Source: a candidate division WOR-3 bacterium (GTDB lineage Bacteria; Hydrothermota; UBA3072). From it: DNA of 64,000 nucleotides. How positions within the stretch are numbered: the first letter of the stretch is position 1; each line of letters starts with the position of its first letter. The stretch is from positions 787 through 64,786 of the forward strand of contig JAGLZA010000099.1 of the NCBI GenBank assembly GCA_023131835.1. The letters run 5' to 3'. Below are positions 8,662 to 29,997 of the stretch, piece after piece. The translations under genes were made by a program, and so were the position numbers. Under the pieces are notes generated by a model. It ran no database searches. It saw only the letters and a list, made by a program, of their open reading frames with translations, and had not been told where the DNA came from.

Positions 8662-10395
8662 TTATGCATTAGGCATCTTTATAAAACCATTTCTCATCAA
8701 AGATTTTGTTTCTTCCCGAGCATTTCTTATAGTAATCTCAGCCTTCCTGTACAACTCCTCTTCAGAAATCTTTAACCTGGCAACACCCTGCTCTATTGCC
8801 TTCATACCAACAGCAGTTGCCTCCCTTGGATAAACTTCCCACTCATCCATTGTTGGAACTATATATTCTTCAGAAAGACCTTTGTCTTCGGCACATTTTG
8901 CCAGTTCAGCAGCAGCAGCAATACACATCTCATCAGTTATTGTTTTTGCCATTACATCTAAAGCACCTCTGAAGATACCTGGAAATCCTAGTGAATTATT
9001 AACCTGATTGGGAAAATCCGATCTACCTGTTGCAACTATTCTTGCACCAGCTTTCTTTGCTTCCCATGGCCATATCTCAGGAACAGGATTGGCACAGGCA
9101 AAGACTACTGCATCATCTGCCATTAAACTTACCCATTCTGGTTTAATAGTACCAGGACCAGATCGTGAAAGCGCAATACAGACATTTGCATCTTTCATTG
9201 CCTCGGGTATTCTTCCTTTTCTACCCTCAGCATTAGATATCTGACACATATTCCATTTCTCTTTCAAATCTTTAAGATCCTTCCTTTCTTTATTCAGAAT
9301 CCCCTTACTGTCTACCATAATAATATTCTGGGGATTAACACCAGCTGCAATTATAACTCTTGAGATAGCAATATTTGAGGCACCTGCACCTACCATTGTT
9401 ATCTTTGCTTCACTGAGTCCTATGTTTATAATCTTGAGCGCATTTATCAACCCGGCCAGAGTTACTGCTGCCGTTCCCTGCTGGTCATCATGCCAGACCG
9501 GAATGTCCATTTCTTTCCGCAGTTTATCTAATATATAGAAACATTTTGGCTTAGCGATATCTTCTAAATTTATCCCACCAAAGGTAGGTGCTAACCATTT
9601 ACATGCGGTAATTATTTCATCCGGATCCTTGGTATCCAGCATTATAGGAAAAGCATCCACCCCACCCAAGTATTTAAAAAGGATTGCCTTACCTTCCATT
9701 ACAGGTAGACCAGCCTCCGGTCCTATATCACCAAGCCCTAAAACTCTCGTGCCATCGGATACAATGGCAACGAGATTTCCCTTATTTGTGTGTTCATAGA
9801 CCTTTTCCGGGTTCTTACTAATATCACGGCAAGGTTCGGCAACTCCAGGTGTATACCATATTGCAAAATCATTAAAATCTCTAATGCAGCATTTAGGAAT
9901 AACCGAAATTTTTCCACGATAAAAAGGATGTAGTGTCATGGCATCTTCACCTGGTTTATTTGCTTTAGCAAGAAGTTCTTCAAGAGATACAGTCTTTGTA
10001 AGAGTCTCTATCCTGGCTAAGAGCGTACTTGGCGAAACAGGTTTTTCTAAAAAATTATCTACGGGTAAGAGTTGTGTTCCTGCTATTTCAGAAAAGTCCA
10101 TTTTCATAACTTCCTGTATACTGGATATGATCAATATTGGGATTTTAGAACAACTAAAATACGGAGATTTTCTATCAGGATTTCTTAGCTTATTTACAAC
10201 TTCCAAACCAGCCGTAATATGCTCCATCATAATATCCAGTACAATTAAGTCAGGCATAATCTCCTTTACATTTTCGAGAGCCTCTTTTGCTGAACTTGCA
10301 CAGGCACATTCATAAGAATTGCTTTCCAGTATTGTCCTGGTTGCAAGTACAAAATCCGGGTCATCATCAACAATAAGGATTTTCTTTTTATCCAT
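8662..10395 (-). CDS. Response-regulator receiver domain fused to NAD(P)-dependent malic enzyme
   Basis: The N-terminal ~120 aa form a REC domain (KILIVDDDPDFV...DLIVLDIMM). The remainder carries malic enzyme motifs (IWYTPGVAEPC, GKAILFK, GGINLEDIAKPKCF, GAGASNIAI) in a single ORF. Confidence 0.8.
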   Translation of the reverse strand: MDKKKILIVDDDPDFVLATRTILESNSYECACASSAKEALENVKEIMPDLIVLDIMMEHITAGLEVVNKLRNPDRKSPYFSCSKIPILIISSIQEVMKMDFSEIAGTQLLPVDNFLEKPVSPSTLLARIETLTKTVSLEELLAKANKPGEDAMTLHPFYRGKISVIPKCCIRDFNDFAIWYTPGVAEPCRDISKNPEKVYEHTNKGNLVAIVSDGTRVLGLGDIGPEAGLPVMEGKAILFKYLGGVDAFPIMLDTKDPDEIITACKWLAPTFGGINLEDIAKPKCFYILDKLRKEMDIPVWHDDQQGTAAVTLAGLINALKIINIGLSEAKITMVGAGASNIAISRVIIAAGVNPQNIIMVDSKGILNKERKDLKDLKEKWNMCQISNAEGRKGRIPEAMKDANVCIALSRSGPGTIKPEWVSLMADDAVVFACANPVPEIWPWEAKKAGARIVATGRSDFPNQVNNSLGFPGIFRGALDVMAKTITDEMCIAAAAELAKCAEDKGLSEEYIVPTMDEWEVYPREATAVGMKAIEQGVARLKISEEELYRKAEITIRNAREETKSLMRNGFIKMPNA

Positions 10396-22847: not shown

Positions 22848-23348
22848 TTAATCGACTTTAAAATCTCCATATTTTTTCACATGCTCCTCAATTCCTCCGT
22901 CCTGAATTAACCTCATCATAAATGGCGGAATAGGAAGGGAATTAAGGGTAAATCCCTTGGTTATATCCCTAATCTCCCCTCTCTCCAGGTCAATCTCAAG
23001 TTCGTCTCCTTCCTCAATCTTATCTGTATCTGTTGTCAGGAGAGGTAATCCTATATTAAAACTGTTCCTGTAGAATATCCTTGCAAAGGAGTTTGCAATA
23101 ATACAGGATACACCGGCAATTTTTATAATTCTTGGTGCATGTTCACGGGAAGAGCCAAGCCCGAAATTTCTACCGGCTACAATGATGTCACCTTCATTGA
23201 CCTTTGAAGCAAATTCGGGATCAGCATCCTCAAGAACATGCTTGGCAAGTTCCGGTAGATTTGACCTCAGGTGGAAGTATCTTCCAGGAGCTATATGATC
23301 CGTTGATATATCGTTACCAAATTTCCATACTTTACCTTTAATTACCAT
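22848..23348 (-). CDS. Aconitase-family dehydratase small subunit (LeuD-like)
   Basis: 166-aa swivel-domain protein (LeuD-like) immediately downstream of the large subunit. Confidence 0.7.
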
Positions 23349-23356
23349 AACTTCTC

Positions 23357-24610
23357 CTACAGATATTTTCTCGGGTCTGTGATTTTACCCTCAATTGCAG
23401 AGGCTGCTGCCATTGCAGGAGACCCGAGATAAATGAAGCCCTCTGGATTTCCCATTCTGCCTCTAAAATTCCTGTTCTGGGTGGAGAGAACCCTCTCTCC
23501 ATCTCCTAAAACACCCATATGCACACCAACACAGGGACCACAACCTGGAGATTGAATGGCTGCTCCTGCCTCGATGAAAATCTCTATTAAACCTTCTTTT
23601 AATGCTTTCTTATACACATCCATTGAAGCAGGAATTACTATCAGTCTCGTCTCCGGATTACTTCTCCTCCCTTCCAGTATTGCCGCCGCTACCTTCAAGT
23701 CCTCCAGTCTTCCATTCGTACAGGTTCCAATATAGACCTGGTCCAGGGGAATGGAATCAACTTCGGATATCTTTTTTACATTGTCTACGGTATGAGGAAA
23801 TGAAATAACAGGTTCTAATTCACTGACGTCAATCTCAAAAACCCTTTCATAATCAGCATCTGAGTCAGCTTTAATTTCCCTGTATCTCTCACCTCTACCT
23901 CTCATCTCAAGATATTTTTTTGTATCTTTATCCGTCGGGATAATCCCTGTCTTTGCTCCTGCTTCAATTGCCATATTTGTTATGGTAAATCTTGAATCCA
24001 TTGATAGATTCTCTATGGTTTCTCCTTCAAATTCCATTGCTTTATAGGTAGCGCCGTCTGCGCCAATCTTTTGAATAATATGAAGTATTAGATCTTTGGA
24101 ATACACCCCTTCGGGGAGTTCTCCCTTCAGTATGAATTTGAAGGTTTCAGGAACCTTGAGCCAGACCTTACCGAGGGCAAACGCAAGTGCCACATCAGTC
24201 GAACCCATTCCGGTTGCAAAGGCCCCCAGTGCACCGGATGTGCATGTGTGGGAATCAGCGCCAACCATCAGGTATCCGGGATTCGCCCAGTCTTCAACCA
24301 GCCTCTGATGACATACACCTTCACCTACCTCTGAAAGATATGCGCCTGTCTTCTTTGAGAATTCCCTCAGCATCTTGTGAGAATTTGATAGTTCTTTCCT
24401 GGGTGATGGAGCGGCATGGTCTAAAAAGAGTATGGTATTTTCTGGGTCAAAGACCCTCTCCATATTTAGTTTCTGCAACCTTTGAATAGAAAGTGGTCCT
24501 GTCCCATCCTGCACCATTGCCACATCAACATCTGCTACAACTATTTCCCCTGCCTCAACCTCCCTCCCGACGTGCTCCCCGATGATTTTTTCAGATATCG
24601 TTTTGTTCAT
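23357..24610 (-). CDS. Aconitase-family dehydratase large subunit (LeuC/HACN-like, archaeal-type ~420 aa)
   Basis: Cys ligands in GCGPCVG and a LeuC-like substrate motif. Start placed at the ATG at 24610 (MNKTISEK), which has a GGGAG RBS and abuts the citrate synthase stop. Confidence 0.75.
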   Translation of the reverse strand: MNKTISEKIIGEHVGREVEAGEIVVADVDVAMVQDGTGPLSIQRLQKLNMERVFDPENTILFLDHAAPSPRKELSNSHKMLREFSKKTGAYLSEVGEGVCHQRLVEDWANPGYLMVGADSHTCTSGALGAFATGMGSTDVALAFALGKVWLKVPETFKFILKGELPEGVYSKDLILHIIQKIGADGATYKAMEFEGETIENLSMDSRFTITNMAIEAGAKTGIIPTDKDTKKYLEMRGRGERYREIKADSDADYERVFEIDVSELEPVISFPHTVDNVKKISEVDSIPLDQVYIGTCTNGRLEDLKVAAAILEGRRSNPETRLIVIPASMDVYKKALKEGLIEIFIEAGAAIQSPGCGPCVGVHMGVLGDGERVLSTQNRNFRGRMGNPEGFIYLGSPAMAAASAIEGKITDPRKYL

Positions 24611-24611
24611 T

Positions 24612-25769
24612 CTACTCCCGTTCATCCATGGGAGTATATTCAACATCAATGGGTCCGTTGTAGATTGCTCTCGGTCTGAATATCCTATTTTGTTGCCGGT
24701 ACTCGATGCAATGACCGACCCAGCCTGAAACTCTTGACACTGCGAAGATGGGTGTAAAGAGATCAGTTGGAATTCCTATGGCTTTGTAGGCGAAGCCGGA
24801 ATAGAAATCAACATTGGGGAATATTCCCTTCTTGCTCACTTCTCTCATCATTATTTCTTCGACCTTTATGGCTGTTTCCACCAATTTGCTTTCTTCCTTT
24901 CCAGCCAGGTTTTTGGCATAATCTTTAAGGATTTTTGCCCTTGGATCGTAGGCTTTATAGACCCTGTGACCGAAGCCCATAATCTTCTTATGCTCTTTTA
25001 TTGCCTTCATGATATAATCTTCGGCATTTTCAGGACTTCCGATTTGCTGGAGCATAGCAACCACTCTCTCATTTGCTCCACCATGCAGAGGGCCCCTAAG
25101 AGTTCCTATCCCTGTAATGATAGAGGAATATATATCAGAGAGTGTTGAAGAAGTTACATAAGTCGAAAAGGTGGATGCATTCATTCCATGGTCTGCATGG
25201 AGAATAAATGCCAGGTCAAGGATTTTGGCACTCTCCTCATCGGGCTTTTCACCATGAAGCATGTAAAGGAAATTGGCAGCGTGGGGAAGAGAATTATCCG
25301 GTTGCAGTATCTCTTTTCCGTTTCTGGCTCTGTCAAACGCTGCAACAAAAGATGGAAGCCTTGCAATGATTTTTTTACCATTTTTGGTAAATCCTCTTAA
25401 TGTCTGTTTTTCTCCCGGAGGTGGCGGTTCCTCCATACCCATATAGGAAACACAGGTCTTCAAAGCATCCATTGGGTGACCACCTTTTGGAAAATTCTTG
25501 ATCCATTCGATTTCCTCTGAAGTTAGTTTTCTGTATTCCTTCATTTCAGTGGTAAAATCATCAAGTTCCTTTTTATTGGGGAGATTGCCAAAGAGCAGAA
25601 AGTAAGTTGCCTCTTCAAAGGTTGAATTCTCTGCCATAATCTCAATAGGTATACCCCTATAGATTAATATGCCATCATCTCCGTCAATACGTGACATTGC
25701 AGATATGGCTGCCGATACTCCTTCAAGTCCACGAGAATACTCAAATTCTCCAGAAGGTTCTTTACCCAT
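24612..25769 (-). CDS. gltA: Citrate synthase
   Basis: GFGHRVYKAYDPRA signature and LIYRGIPIE. Start placed at the ATG at 25769, preceded by AGGAGG-5nt (MGKEPSG...). Confidence 0.85.
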   Translation of the reverse strand: MGKEPSGEFEYSRGLEGVSAAISAMSRIDGDDGILIYRGIPIEIMAENSTFEEATYFLLFGNLPNKKELDDFTTEMKEYRKLTSEEIEWIKNFPKGGHPMDALKTCVSYMGMEEPPPPGEKQTLRGFTKNGKKIIARLPSFVAAFDRARNGKEILQPDNSLPHAANFLYMLHGEKPDEESAKILDLAFILHADHGMNASTFSTYVTSSTLSDIYSSIITGIGTLRGPLHGGANERVVAMLQQIGSPENAEDYIMKAIKEHKKIMGFGHRVYKAYDPRAKILKDYAKNLAGKEESKLVETAIKVEEIMMREVSKKGIFPNVDFYSGFAYKAIGIPTDLFTPIFAVSRVSGWVGHCIEYRQQNRIFRPRAIYNGPIDVEYTPMDERE

Positions 25770-25874
25770 TGTGTCCTCCTTTATTTTTACTAATACTAAT
25801 GTTGAATCGGGCAATGTCAAGGTATTTTTATTTCAGCATAATACCTGTGACTTATGACTGATAGCTAAATAACC

Positions 25875-25903
25875 CTTGACAACGGTTATGGGGTTGTTAA
25901 TAC
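25875..25903 (+). promoter_or_regulatory. Sigma70-like promoter upstream of larA (TTGACA-17-AATACT)
   Basis: TTGACA at 25875-25880 with a weak -10 at 25898-25903. It is ~60 nt upstream of the larA SD. Confidence 0.3.
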
Positions 25904-25966
25904 TATGAGCAAGATAAATTGCCCAAGTTTATATTGTTTTGTTAATAAATAAAAAAGGAGGTAAAA

Positions 25967-27211
25967 ATAAAGATAGAAGTTCCATACGGTAAGGATAAAA
26001 TTACTGTTGATGTCCCTGAAGAGAATGTAAAGGATATTGTCTACCCCAATAAGGTAGAGATTAGAGAACCAGAGAAAATTCTTCAGGAAGCACTGGATAA
26101 TCCTGTTGGAATGGAAAATTTTGACAAGTTTCTGGAAGAGAGTGAGGACATTCTTTTTATAGTGAACGATGGAACCAGACCAACCCCTACTGCCCTTATC
26201 TTAAGATTACTCAATGAAAGAATGGATTTGGAGTCGGCAAAGTATATAATAGCCACAGGAGCCCACCGTGCTCCAACCGAGGAGGAATTCAATTTTATCT
26301 TTGGTGACCTTTATGATGAATTGAAGAACCGCATCATAGTCCATGATGCAAGAAAGATGGAAGATATGGTCTATATCGGCTCAACATCAAATGAGACGGA
26401 GATGTGGGTGAACAGGATTGCCTGGGACGCGGGCAGTTTGATTCCAATAGGCTCTGTGGAACCACATTATTTCGGCGGATTCACAGGTGGAAGAAAATCT
26501 TTCCTTCCGGGAGTTGCAGGTTACAAAACCATACAGCAGAACCATAAACTTGCTTTAAAACCCGGTGCCAGAGCGCTTAAACTGGAAGGTAATCCAGTCC
26601 ATGAAGATTTTAACGAAGCAATAAGAACTATATCTGATAAACCCATATTCTCAATTCAGACAGTCCTTGATGGTGAGAGAAATCTTTATGCCGCAACAGC
26701 CGGTGATATCTACCAATCATTTGACAAGGCGATTTCCTATGCAAGGGAAGTTTTCTGTGTTTTTATACCAGAAAAGGCTGAAATTGTGGTTTCAGTTGCT
26801 CCCTATCCAATGGATGTGGATCTGTATCAATCACAGAAAGCAATTGATAATGGAAAACTTGCCCTGAAAGAAAACGGTGTATTAATAATGGTCGCTAAAT
26901 GCAGAACAGGATTGGGTGATAGGACATTCTATGATCTCCTTTCATCCTCAAATTCTGCAGAAGAGGTTCTGGAAATGATAGAAAAAGAGTATAAACTTGG
27001 TTATCATAAAGCTGGTAAGATGGCAGAGATAGCAACCTGGGCAGAGATGTGGGCCGTGACTGATCTCGAGGATGAGATATTAGAGAATATCTTTATTAGA
27101 CCCTTTGATTCTATCCAGATAGCAATCGATGAAGCAATCAAGAAAAAGGATCCAAATGCTGAAATCCTGTTTCTGATGGACGGAAGTATCAGTGTTCCCA
27201 TAATTCAATAG
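25967..27211 (+). CDS. larA: Lactate racemase LarA family (nickel-pincer-nucleotide dependent); apparent AUA start
   Basis: The frame is open 48 codons upstream of the track ATG (26111), and that N-terminus (IKIEVPYGKDKITV...LDNPVG) matches LarA. VNDGTRPTP and HYFGGFTGGRKSFLPG motifs are present. GGAGG at 25957-25961 lies 5 nt before ATA 25967, with no ATG/GTG/TTG available. Confidence 0.75.
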   Translation: MKIEVPYGKDKITVDVPEENVKDIVYPNKVEIREPEKILQEALDNPVGMENFDKFLEESEDILFIVNDGTRPTPTALILRLLNERMDLESAKYIIATGAHRAPTEEEFNFIFGDLYDELKNRIIVHDARKMEDMVYIGSTSNETEMWVNRIAWDAGSLIPIGSVEPHYFGGFTGGRKSFLPGVAGYKTIQQNHKLALKPGARALKLEGNPVHEDFNEAIRTISDKPIFSIQTVLDGERNLYAATAGDIYQSFDKAISYAREVFCVFIPEKAEIVVSVAPYPMDVDLYQSQKAIDNGKLALKENGVLIMVAKCRTGLGDRTFYDLLSSSNSAEEVLEMIEKEYKLGYHKAGKMAEIATWAEMWAVTDLEDEILENIFIRPFDSIQIAIDEAIKKKDPNAEILFLMDGSISVPIIQ

Positions 27212-27241: not shown

Positions 27242-28057
27242 ATGGTTTTTGTCTTGGAAGGTAAGTTCCGGGAAGTGATTGAATCAATTTATAAGAATAA
27301 AAGGTGTGTGGTATCCTTCTCCGGTGGGATGGATTCATCTCTGCTTTTATGGCTGGCTATTGAGGCTACAGGAAGGGAGAACGTACTGCCTGTTCACATA
27401 ATGACTCCAGCAACTACTTTACAGGAAGAGAAGAATGTAGATAAAATAAGTTCATACCTTGATATCGATGTTGAGAAACTGAAGATTAATATATTGGACA
27501 TCCGGGAAATATTAGAGGGTAGTAAGCTCAGGTGTTATTTCTGTAAAAGATATATGCTTAAGCATCTTGTAGAGATTGCGGATAAAGGAGATTACAATGC
27601 CGTTCTGGAAGGGAGTAACCGAACAGATACTGAATATTATAGACCTGGATTAAAAGCTTTAGACGAGTTTAAGAGTGTCTGTTCACCATTCTTAGAATTC
27701 AGGGTTAAAAAGAGAGAAATTCGTAGAATTTCAGAAGAGATAGGACTGCCGTCTGCAGATTTTGAATCATTGGCTTGTCTCCTGACACGGATGCCCTACG
27801 AAAAAAAAGTGACTGAAAAAGCCCTGAGAAGGATAGATAAAATAGAAGATTTTATTAGGGATTTTGGCGTAAAACAGGTAAGAGCCAGGATTGTCAACAA
27901 TAAAATAAGAGTGGAAACAGGAGAATCCGATATACCAAAGATAAAAGAGAATCAGAATGAAATATTGGAACTCTCTAAAAGGATGGGATTCAATAATACA
28001 ACTCTTGATATAAATCTATATAAACCAGGAAGGTTCGATGGAGAACATTCAGGATAG
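27242..28057 (+). CDS. larE: LarE (ATP-dependent sacrificial sulfur transferase, PP-loop ATPase)
   Basis: SFSGGMDSS PP-loop. Start at the ATG at 27242 (the track uses TTG at 27227). Adjacent to larA and larB. Confidence 0.75.
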   Translation: MVFVLEGKFREVIESIYKNKRCVVSFSGGMDSSLLLWLAIEATGRENVLPVHIMTPATTLQEEKNVDKISSYLDIDVEKLKINILDIREILEGSKLRCYFCKRYMLKHLVEIADKGDYNAVLEGSNRTDTEYYRPGLKALDEFKSVCSPFLEFRVKKREIRRISEEIGLPSADFESLACLLTRMPYEKKVTEKALRRIDKIEDFIRDFGVKQVRARIVNNKIRVETGESDIPKIKENQNEILELSKRMGFNNTTLDINLYKPGRFDGEHSG

Positions 28058-28805
28058 GTTTAATAGTCTGTGGCATAAATGGAAGAATGATGAACTCACA
28101 TTCAACGAAATGATAGAGAAGATAAAATCTCTATTCGTAGAAGATATGGGTTTTGCAAATCTCGATATTGACAGAAAGAGGAGACGAGGCTTTCCTGAAG
28201 CCATTATGGCTGAAGGAAAAATTCTGGTTGACCTTAAAAAGATAATTGGTAAATTATTCGACAGAAATGAAGAAATCGTACTGATCACGAAGGTCAAGAA
28301 AGATATTGCAAAGGAATTATGTGATGATTTCCCTGACTTAATCTATAAAGAAAGAGCAAAAGTACTTTATTATCAAGAGAAAGTTCCGGAAAGGTTAGGT
28401 AAAATTTCATTAATCACAGCGGGTAGCGCAGATATACCTGTAGCAGAGGAAGCAAGGGTTACTGCTGAGATAAGGGGAAGTTACATTGAACCTTTATATG
28501 ATGTTGGTATTGCAGGAATTCACAGACTTTATTTAAACCGGGAGAAATTTCAGAATGCCAATGCTGGGATAGTTATAGCGGGAATGGAGGGAGCGCTTCC
28601 CTCCTTTGTTGCCGGCCTTGTAGATTATCCTATTATAGCTGTTCCTACATCGGTGGGTTATGGAGCTAATCTAAACGGTCTGGTAGCTTTGCTGGGTATG
28701 ATAAACAGTTGTGTTCCGGGTGTTTCTGTGGTGAATGTAGATAATGGTTATGGGGCTGGATATATAGCATCAATGATAAATAGAAAAATAGAAGGAAGAG
28801 GTTAA
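28038..28805 (+). CDS. larB: LarB (PurE-like pyridinium-3,5-biscarboxylic acid mononucleotide synthase)
   Basis: MGFANLDIDRKRRRGFPEAI matches the LarB N-terminus, and the PurE-like core has AGSADIPVAEE. Overlaps larE by 20 nt. Confidence 0.75.
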   Translation: MENIQDRFNSLWHKWKNDELTFNEMIEKIKSLFVEDMGFANLDIDRKRRRGFPEAIMAEGKILVDLKKIIGKLFDRNEEIVLITKVKKDIAKELCDDFPDLIYKERAKVLYYQEKVPERLGKISLITAGSADIPVAEEARVTAEIRGSYIEPLYDVGIAGIHRLYLNREKFQNANAGIVIAGMEGALPSFVAGLVDYPIIAVPTSVGYGANLNGLVALLGMINSCVPGVSVVNVDNGYGAGYIASMINRKIEGRG

Positions 28806-28809
28806 AGAA

Positions 28810-29997
28810 TTGAAAATTCTGTATTTCAACGCCTTTAATGGTATTAGTGGGGATATGATACTCGGCAGCTTTTTAGATTGCTGCATCTCATTTCATCACC
28901 TGAAGGGAGAGATGGAAAAATTGGGTCTGGAAGGAATCGAACTGGAGAAAAGGGCTGTAGAAAAAGCCGGTATCCGTGCGACAAAGGTTTCTATTAGATT
29001 CAAGGGGTCTACTCCCAGACGGACGCTTTCGGATATAGAGCAGATTATTAATGAAAGCAGACTGAATGAGGTTATCAAAGAGGATTCAATAGAGATATTT
29101 AGAAGGTTAGCTAAGGCAGAGTCCTTTGTTCATGGGATATCCATGGATAAGGTCCACTTTCACGAATTAGGGGCAGTGGATACAATTGCGGATATCGTTG
29201 GAGCAGTTTCCTGCTTTAACAGGATAGAACCCGATGCTGTTATGTGTTCTCCAATAAACGTGGGGGCAGGGACAATTAAAACCGAACATGGAGTTCTGCC
29301 CGTTCCTGCTCCAGCCACCGTAGAATTGTTGAAAGGGGTGCCGGTATACAGTAGTGAGATAAAAGCTGAATTATGTACTCCAACGGGAGCGGCAATTATC
29401 ACCTTCTACGCAAATGAATTCAACCAGTTACCGGAGTTAACAGTGGATAAAGTAGGGTATGGTGCGGGAGACAGAGATTTTGAGGGGGTTCCCAATGTGC
29501 TTCGCCTTATGCTGGGGGTTTCAGAAAATGATTATCTACATGACGAGATAATGGAAGTTCAAACCAATATTGACGATATGAATCCAGAAGTATGGAGCCA
29601 TATTTTCGATAAATTCTTTGAGATGGGGGCTCTGGATGTCAATTTAATGGATGCTCATATGAAAAAGAACAGACCAGGGACGGTCCTCTCTGTACTTGTG
29701 AGGAGAGAGAATCTTCAAACTATAATAGATTATATACTAAAAGCCACCTCATCTTTTGGAATTAGATACCATAGAACCGAGAGAGTTAAATTAAAACGTG
29801 AGATTAGAACCATTAAGACAAAATTAGGGAAAATAGAAATAAAGGTAGGATACCTACCTGGAGGTGAGATAAAATTTGCCCCCGAGTATAACTCCTGCAG
29901 GAAAATAGCCGGGGAGAAGAATATTCCAATTATTGAGGTTTACCAGGAAGCTAATAGAGTATTCCAATTGCTTTTAAACAGTGACAATGAAATCTAA
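28810..29997 (+). CDS. larC: LarC (nickel insertion/CTP-dependent nickelochelatase, DUF111)
   Basis: N-terminal KILYFNAFNGISGDMILGSFLD (LarC signature). TTG start with a GAGG RBS. Confidence 0.75.
   Translation: MKILYFNAFNGISGDMILGSFLDCCISFHHLKGEMEKLGLEGIELEKRAVEKAGIRATKVSIRFKGSTPRRTLSDIEQIINESRLNEVIKEDSIEIFRRLAKAESFVHGISMDKVHFHELGAVDTIADIVGAVSCFNRIEPDAVMCSPINVGAGTIKTEHGVLPVPAPATVELLKGVPVYSSEIKAELCTPTGAAIITFYANEFNQLPELTVDKVGYGAGDRDFEGVPNVLRLMLGVSENDYLHDEIMEVQTNIDDMNPEVWSHIFDKFFEMGALDVNLMDAHMKKNRPGTVLSVLVRRENLQTIIDYILKATSSFGIRYHRTERVKLKREIRTIKTKLGKIEIKVGYLPGGEIKFAPEYNSCRKIAGEKNIPIIEVYQEANRVFQLLLNSDNEI

Follow-up and report, generated by a model that had tools for sequence, protein, structure and literature searches.

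In a 64,000-nucleotide (nt) stretch of DNA from a candidate division WOR-3 bacterium (GenBank assembly GCA_023131835.1, contig JAGLZA010000099.1; the whole stretch is referred to as the window), the larA-family gene, which codes for a homologue of nickel-pincer-nucleotide (NPN)-dependent 2-hydroxyacid racemases, very probably starts at a genuine near-cognate AUA codon. The codon would be read by the initiator tRNA with the help of an optimised initiation region, and it probably lowers the output of the gene. The start region of larA in the window is aaGGAGGtaaaaATAaagatagaagttccatacggt, in which the core GGAGG (25957-25961) of the Shine-Dalgarno (SD) site is followed by the spacer TAAAA (25962-25966) and by ATA (25967-25969) on the plus strand. 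A first-pass annotation of the window had drawn attention to this arrangement with its 5-nt spacing, and every element of it was confirmed in the window sequence. Its statement that the first ATG of the frame, at 26111, is preceded by 48 codons holds as well: no in-frame ATG, GTG or TTG was found between the opening of the frame at 25949 and 26111. The ATA-started translation reads IKIEVPYGKDKITVDVPEEN...LDNPVGM. The bare motif GGAGG-N4-7-ATA was rejected as evidence by itself: the window has 6 copies where shuffles lead one to expect 10.8, and there is no enrichment. Since the motif is not rare, the weight rests on its place at the beginning of a conserved frame and on its conservation in relatives.

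The conserved N-terminus of LarA does extend upstream of 26111, as had been proposed. Position 1 of the Pfam Lar_N profile aligns with residue 7 of the ATA-started protein, the alignment with the malate racemase Mar2 (6d6z; E = 1.2e-69, the best match to a solved structure) begins at residue 3 and that with the solved LarA (2yjg) at residue 2. The comparison of start codons among orthologues gave ATA in eight lineages and canonical codons in distant relatives. The outgroup consisted of relatives of 51-64% identity among the metagenome matches listed, a scope which applies to all the outgroup counts given here. At its 83 loci, the start codons were 77 ATG and 3 GTG, the remaining 3 loci having ATG one or two codons upstream, and the aligned codon was ATG or GTG in 76/76 orthologues scored for SD strength. 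A scan of genome contigs returned only distant relatives with an ATG start.

Translation from the ATG at 26111, as in a Prodigal-type prediction, would produce a 366-amino-acid (aa) protein lacking the N-terminus. No canonical start codon precedes this ATG in the frame, and it or the equivalent codon serves as the start in ten public gene calls (P0001, P0008 and P0124-P0130 with 366 aa; P0121 with 372 aa from a nearby TTG). Here and below, L and P numbers denote loci and protein calls of relatives; P0001 is 99% identical to the window protein. We nevertheless consider a start at 26111 highly unlikely. Codons 2-48 encode the beginning of Lar_N and align with the solved LarA and Mar2 proteins. 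They are under purifying selection (ratio of non-synonymous to synonymous substitution rates, dN/dS, about 0.1-0.4, with dS about 1 or saturated in most pairs), which indicates that the segment is translated in all lineages. There is no usable SD site before 26111, the best canonical start site in the larA open reading frame (ORF) scoring only -5.6 kcal/mol, and Met49 is replaced by Thr in the lineages L012 and L098 (P0006, P0005).

The first-pass annotation had left the choice between a genuine AUA start and a sequencing error of ATG. The former is supported, whereas the latter was refuted by the recurrence of the codon. A single A-for-G change, with ATG as the true codon and the A at 25969 as an artefact of sequencing or assembly, would account for the window taken alone. 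The homologous codon is likewise ATA, however, in L004, a second strain which comes from a different run and has a nearby single-nucleotide polymorphism. ATA is also present in seven further lineages (L001, L011, L012, L013, L014, L015 and L096) of 61-91% protein identity, which come from independent NCBI, JGI and Logan assemblies; together with the window, these form the eight ATA lineages. The L001 locus was recovered as L002 and L003 too, the three sources being an NCBI assembly (GCA_964476585.1), a JGI metagenome and a Logan assembly, all made independently. Nine more members of the 90% cluster of the window protein, from separate sources, were each called with 366 aa (seven) or 414 aa (two NCBI entries). 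The 414-aa NCBI protein MCK4527196.1 has Met as its first residue and is identical to the translation from ATA, and its 66.7-kb contig of 'candidate division WOR-3 bacterium' is shared with a LarC which exactly matches that of the window; this public record evidently already begins at ATA. An error is almost certainly not the explanation. ATA is a permitted start codon in translation table 11. An upstream frameshift or a canonical start upstream, which the first-pass annotation had named as speaking against ATA, did not turn up either: in the window, L001, L014 and L015, an in-frame stop lies a few codons upstream of ATA with no canonical start in between.

Twenty alignment columns are of the Ile type in all eight ATA lineages. 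The start column alone is uniform (ATA), while the 19 internal columns vary among ATA, ATT and ATC; neither ATT nor ATC was ever seen at the start column in these lineages. Synonymous sites are close to saturated, and chance would not have preserved A at a third base free of constraint. The same 19 columns were used for testing a mitochondria-like reassignment of AUA to Met, with a negative result: ATA swaps there with ATT and ATC, so that AUA keeps its meaning Ile in elongation and codon reassignment is excluded. The orthologous position, the lack of an alternative start, the SD spacing and a conservation beyond that of a sense codon, by which a near-cognate AUH start can be recognized, are thus all found at this codon. 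Other non-canonical codons lie in frame within a few codons, and initiation might be placed at ATA 25973 (codon 3), ATA 25949 or GTA 25961. This is very unlikely, since codon 3 varies among ATA, ATC and ATT in the lineages like an ordinary Ile codon and lies 11 nt from the SD core, ATA 25949 is upstream of the SD site and GTA 25961 is inside it. The codon at 25967 alone agrees in every lineage with both the position of the orthologous ATG and a spacing of 5-6 nt.

Gene decay often begins with the loss of ATG, and larA could in principle be a decaying pseudogene which has lost its start codon. The signal of purifying selection refutes this. The frame is intact in all ten lineages of the clade (the eight ATA lineages, L097 and L098), with dN/dS about 0.06-0.14 over the rest of the gene, and the residues H100, H167, K177 and H212 are invariant in a 13-sequence alignment. 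The genes larE-larB-larC downstream are intact and the very strong SD site has been kept, so that the probability of decay is negligible.

The strength of the initiation region agrees with an AUA start. Among about 50 ORF starts of the window, the SD site of larA, with -13.1 kcal/mol against a generic anti-SD sequence, shares second place in strength, even though each of the other ORFs was represented by whichever canonical start scored best. The GGAGG core is located 5-6 nt upstream of ATA in 7/8 ATA lineages (not in L096), the spacer is A-rich and the second codon is A-rich or begins with G. In these seven lineages with an intact SD site, the energies range from -9.3 to -13.1 kcal/mol, and their median of -11.1 compares with -5.6 kcal/mol for the 76 ATG/GTG orthologues (Mann-Whitney p = 1e-4), a comparison which ignores the kinship of the lineages and the differing SD usage among taxa. 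The larA leaders contain 21-29% G+C, and the region from the SD site to the start is predicted to be mostly unpaired (0.51-0.66). The predicted promoter (Table 1) would, judged by its consensus match alone, yield an AU-rich 5' untranslated region of about 55-60 nt; TTGACA also occurs upstream of larA in L001, L011, L096, L012 and L098. A scan of 25600-26300 with Rfam (E <= 1) detected no riboswitch or leader family, and a tRNA scan of the window detected no tRNA genes.

In L013 (around 2005-2040), L014 and L015, the SD site AUAAGGAGG can pair with codons 5-7, AUUCCUUAU (Ile-Pro-Tyr), leaving a 19-nt loop which holds AUA. A hairpin sequestering the SD site was rejected: the pairing is weak in L013-L015 and absent in the window and L001, its arms are otherwise constrained and covariation is uninformative.

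Short ATG-led ORFs are found about 55-62 nt before the larA start in the window (25905-25952, plus strand), L001, L011, L096, L013-L015 and L098. Their products (MSKIN.., MSIILT.., MKVILT.., MSLIFI.., MSILVF..) differ in frame and length, and the upstream ATG of the window, at 25905, comes directly after the predicted -10 box and may escape transcription. A conserved upstream ORF coupled to ATA was rejected, as the ORFs differ in frame, length and stop and the ATG in the window abuts the -10 box. The occurrence of such ORFs in most lineages would be in line with a bypass of AUA at the RNA level, by frameshifting or re-initiation from the upstream ORF; conversion of AUA to AUI by A-to-I editing would be another event of this kind. 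Both are extremely unlikely. The upstream ORFs do not keep their frame, length or stop position among the lineages, that of the window has a probably untranscribed ATG, and the region gave no Rfam match. The known bacterial targets of TadA mRNA editing have a UACG context; the base after the candidate A in larA is, in contrast, A.

An AUA start in larA appears to be old. In a tree constructed from Kimura protein distances with a bootstrap of 300 replicates, the ten close lineages formed a clade in 300/300 replicates. The subgroups within it were L013-L015 (300/300), L001 with L011, L096 and L097 (270/300) and the window with L012 and L098 (198/300), the branching inside the clade being only moderately supported. 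At the deepest splits, ATA occurs in both branches, which is most simply explained by a single change from ATG to ATA at the root of the clade, with the codon retained thereafter. Judged from these sequences, the ATA state is ancestral to the well-supported clade and was kept through synonymous saturation. A canonical start has been gained in three lineages, in a different way each time. In L098, the site itself reads ATG and GGAGG is preserved before it. In L096, the change of the SD core from GGAGG to GGATGG gave rise to an ATG which is in frame and lies three codons upstream. In L097, the site is occupied by CGG, and new ATGs are found two codons downstream of it and three codons upstream. 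In addition, L011 and L013 carry lineage-specific in-frame upstream ATGs without a good SD site, which their closest relatives lack. The ATA state is long-lived yet reversible.

A genuine AUA start might have no regulatory role, if a near-neutral ATG-to-ATA change was tolerated thanks to the strong SD site and leader and has been slowly repaired in some lineages. That 3/10 lineages have reached a canonical ATG and that L011 and L013 possess extra ones is consistent with this history, as is the recent ATG-to-ATT change at mvhD in the same genome (see below), which suggests that such changes arise and persist easily. On the other hand, the third base is invariant in eight lineages despite near-saturated synonymous sites, ATT and ATC never appear at the site, and only one lineage has ATG there, although a single A-to-G transition would produce it. 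We consider near-neutrality a credible account, though less likely than not.

Besides the limits of the SD comparison and of the branching order mentioned above, several points weigh against exclusive and lasting initiation at AUA. An additional in-frame ATG, specific to the lineage and 3-9 codons upstream, is present in three of the eight ATA lineages (L011, L013 and L096), and in L012 there is an in-frame TTG at some distance; in these four lineages, ATA may not be the sole start. The ATG at the site in L098 and the replaced start in L097 mean that ATA is not strictly locked in. Finally, we infer AUA initiation in this uncultured organism from comparative sequence alone.

With initiation at AUA, the extended SD site AAGGAGGU located 5 nt upstream would position the 30S subunit in the AU-rich leader, which is predicted to be largely unpaired. 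The initiator formylmethionyl (fMet)-tRNA would then pair with AUA with a mismatch in the third position, and the product would be the 414-aa LarA beginning Met-Lys-Ile-Glu-Val-Pro-Tyr-Gly-Lys. In Staphylococcus aureus, infC, ccpN and citZ have AUA starts which were mapped by Ribo-Ret and depend on an extended SD site, and their output is about 10% of that of AUG and up to about 30% for ccpN in rich medium (bioRxiv 10.1101/2025.06.19.660503; PMC13009471). An AUA mRNA whose initiation region had been optimised resembled an AUG mRNA in its behaviour at 20-40 °C in extracts of Escherichia coli, but nutrient limitation and ppGpp (guanosine tetraphosphate) strongly depress non-AUG starts; older in vivo values quoted in the same paper are 7.5% for AUA and 5% for AUU or AUC (PMC5499595). 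In E. coli reporters, AUA reached 1-2% of AUG (Hecht et al.). These published data fit the pattern found here, in which ATA persists and neither ATT nor ATC occurs. By analogy, AUA would lower the initiation of larA to a fraction of that from AUG and would make it sensitive to initiation factor 3 (IF3) and to the physiological or growth state. In this way, the codon itself may attenuate the synthesis of LarA, an effect for which the optimised initiation region would partly make up. It counts against attenuation that the argument for it is wholly one of analogy. As a speculation, the selective reason could be the matching of the apo-enzyme to a limited supply of the nickel-pincer cofactor.

The larA start resembles those of S. 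aureus infC, ccpN and citZ in having AUA behind a strong or extended SD site, in being kept among relatives (for ccpN, in staphylococci and Bacillus subtilis), in belonging to a gene of central carbon metabolism and in its expected output, a fraction of the AUG level. It differs from them in the phylum (candidate division WOR-3), in heading a nickel-pincer racemase gene and in its visible history, with a single origin, a long persistence and three separate moves to ATG. The S. aureus starts were mapped and quantified with reporters, whereas that of larA is known only through the comparison of related sequences. The AUU of E. coli infC and the GTC of Streptomyces sigR (PMC5472188) are likewise conserved non-canonical starts, whose poor recognition is enforced by IF3, so that translation follows the level of this factor. 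In those genes, which use AUU and GTC, a regulatory loop was shown, whereas for the AUA of larA a response to IF3 would be expected by analogy. Conserved non-canonical starts (infC AUU, sigR GTC and the S. aureus AUA codons) are already established, and no new mechanism is revealed by larA. Searches of the literature for lactate racemase together with a non-canonical start, or for WOR-3 together with start codons, found nothing relevant.

By its domains (Pfam Lar_N, PF09861, E = 3.2e-54; LarA_C, PF21113, E = 1.1e-17) and its invariant His/His/Lys/His set, the window gene can be assigned to the LarA-family NPN-dependent racemases/epimerases. The motifs around H100, H167, K177 and H212 are ATGxHR, EPHYFxG, GGRK and NPVHED, and their counterparts in 2yjg and 6d6z are aligned with them. 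The catalytic and cofactor-binding residues of Lactobacillus plantarum LarA are His108, His174, Lys184 and His200, to which the four residues of the window protein would correspond. The known members of the LarA/Mar2 family (PDB 5huq, 2yjg, 6d6z) and the window gene are alike in the two domains, in the four residues and in having larE-larB-larC directly downstream. The window gene differs from the family in its start codon, the 76 distant orthologues scored having ATG or GTG, and its best solved match is a malate and not a lactate racemase, the match with L. plantarum LarA being weaker (E = 1.6e-48). The substrate may be malate or another hydroxyacid related to the tricarboxylic acid cycle rather than lactate. 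The genes for citrate synthase and aconitase (22848-25769 in the window) are divergent from larA in every lineage except L097, and a gene for phosphoenolpyruvate carboxykinase is situated downstream of larA in most lineages. The features of the larA region are listed in Table 1.

Table 1. Coordinates of the larA start region and of the downstream lar genes in the window
Feature	Position	Strand	Remarks
Predicted sigma-70-type promoter of larA: TTGACA, 17 nt, AATACT	25876-25904	+	10/12 consensus matches
In-frame TAA	25946-25948	+	closes the larA frame upstream; frame opens at 25949
Extended SD site AAGGAGGT	25955-25962	+	core GGAGG 25957-25961
A-rich 5-nt spacer TAAAA	25962-25966	+	between the GGAGG core and ATA
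Probable ATA (AUA) initiation codon of larA	25967-25969	+	homology to ATG/GTG, recurrence, codon uniformity, 414-aa NCBI protein
Full larA-family coding sequence, 414 aa and stop	25967-27211	+	homologue of NPN-dependent 2-hydroxyacid racemases
larA codons 2-48	25970-26110	+	conserved N-terminal strand and helix region of Lar_N, upstream of the first ATG
First ATG of the larA frame, internal Met49	26111-26113	+	codon 49 counted from ATA 25967
larE (PP-loop ATPase family)	27242-28057	+	ATG start, weak SD site; gene call in L004 mapped onto the window
larB (aminoimidazole ribonucleotide (AIR) carboxylase family)	28038-28805	+	profile match
larC (nickel insertion protein)	28810-29997	+	exact match to NCBI MCK4527199.1, candidate division WOR-3 bacterium

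A second non-canonical start was found in the window, in the region 6089-5671 (minus strand) with the gene for an mvhD/FlpD-like hydrogenase subunit. The ATT codon of this gene (6078-6076) follows GGAGG (6089-6085) after 6 nt and shares bases with the stop codon TAA of the ferredoxin gene upstream (ATTAA). The FlpD Pfam domain is complete (residues 11-129) and begins 30 residues before the first ATG (residue 41), and ATT 6078-6076 appears to be the only plausible start of the gene. The same ATT is present in the independent metagenome-assembled genome GCA_023127855.1 (L100), where NCBI starts the protein at this codon. A 74%-identical relative (L101) has ATG at that position, and the change in the window and L100 is read as recent. 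Two AUH starts thus occur among about 50 genes of the window, the ancient ATA of larA and the recent ATT of mvhD; in model genomes, ATG, GTG and TTG account for about 99.95% of annotated starts. Six other ORFs of the window with long stretches free of canonical starts were checked and no further hidden non-canonical start was detected in them. It is conceivable, though rather unlikely, that this WOR-3 lineage has a generally relaxed start-codon requirement, so that a strong SD site licenses AUH starts at a rate of a few per cent compared with about 0.05%. If this were true, IF3 or the discrimination of the initiator tRNA would seem to have changed specifically in the lineage, and standard gene callers would systematically truncate proteins in this phylum.

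Elsewhere in the window (8662-10395, minus strand), a response-regulator receiver is fused N-terminally to a malic enzyme (domains Response_reg, malic and Malic_M). The fusion gene adjoins genes for a histidine kinase and a double-receiver protein, which is an unusual arrangement and suggests control of the malic enzyme by phosphorylation. Among the LarA relatives, protein P0007 begins with MGSEMCIRDR. This string probably represents a translated Nextera transposase adaptor at a contig end; the shortness of P0007 would then be an artefact rather than one more truncated start.

Gene callers limited to ATG, GTG and TTG have shortened LarA repeatedly. The ten public calls of about 366 aa (nine of 366 and one of 372 aa), among them P0008 from a 79%-identical relative, and two more calls of 399 aa all lose part of Lar_N. 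Such truncation would mislead structure prediction, family alignments and attempts at protein expression. The larA gene offers a clear comparative case in which an AUA start probably arose once, was kept through deep divergence and was later swapped for ATG by three routes, and it may be useful for following the trade-off between start-codon strength and SD strength in evolution.

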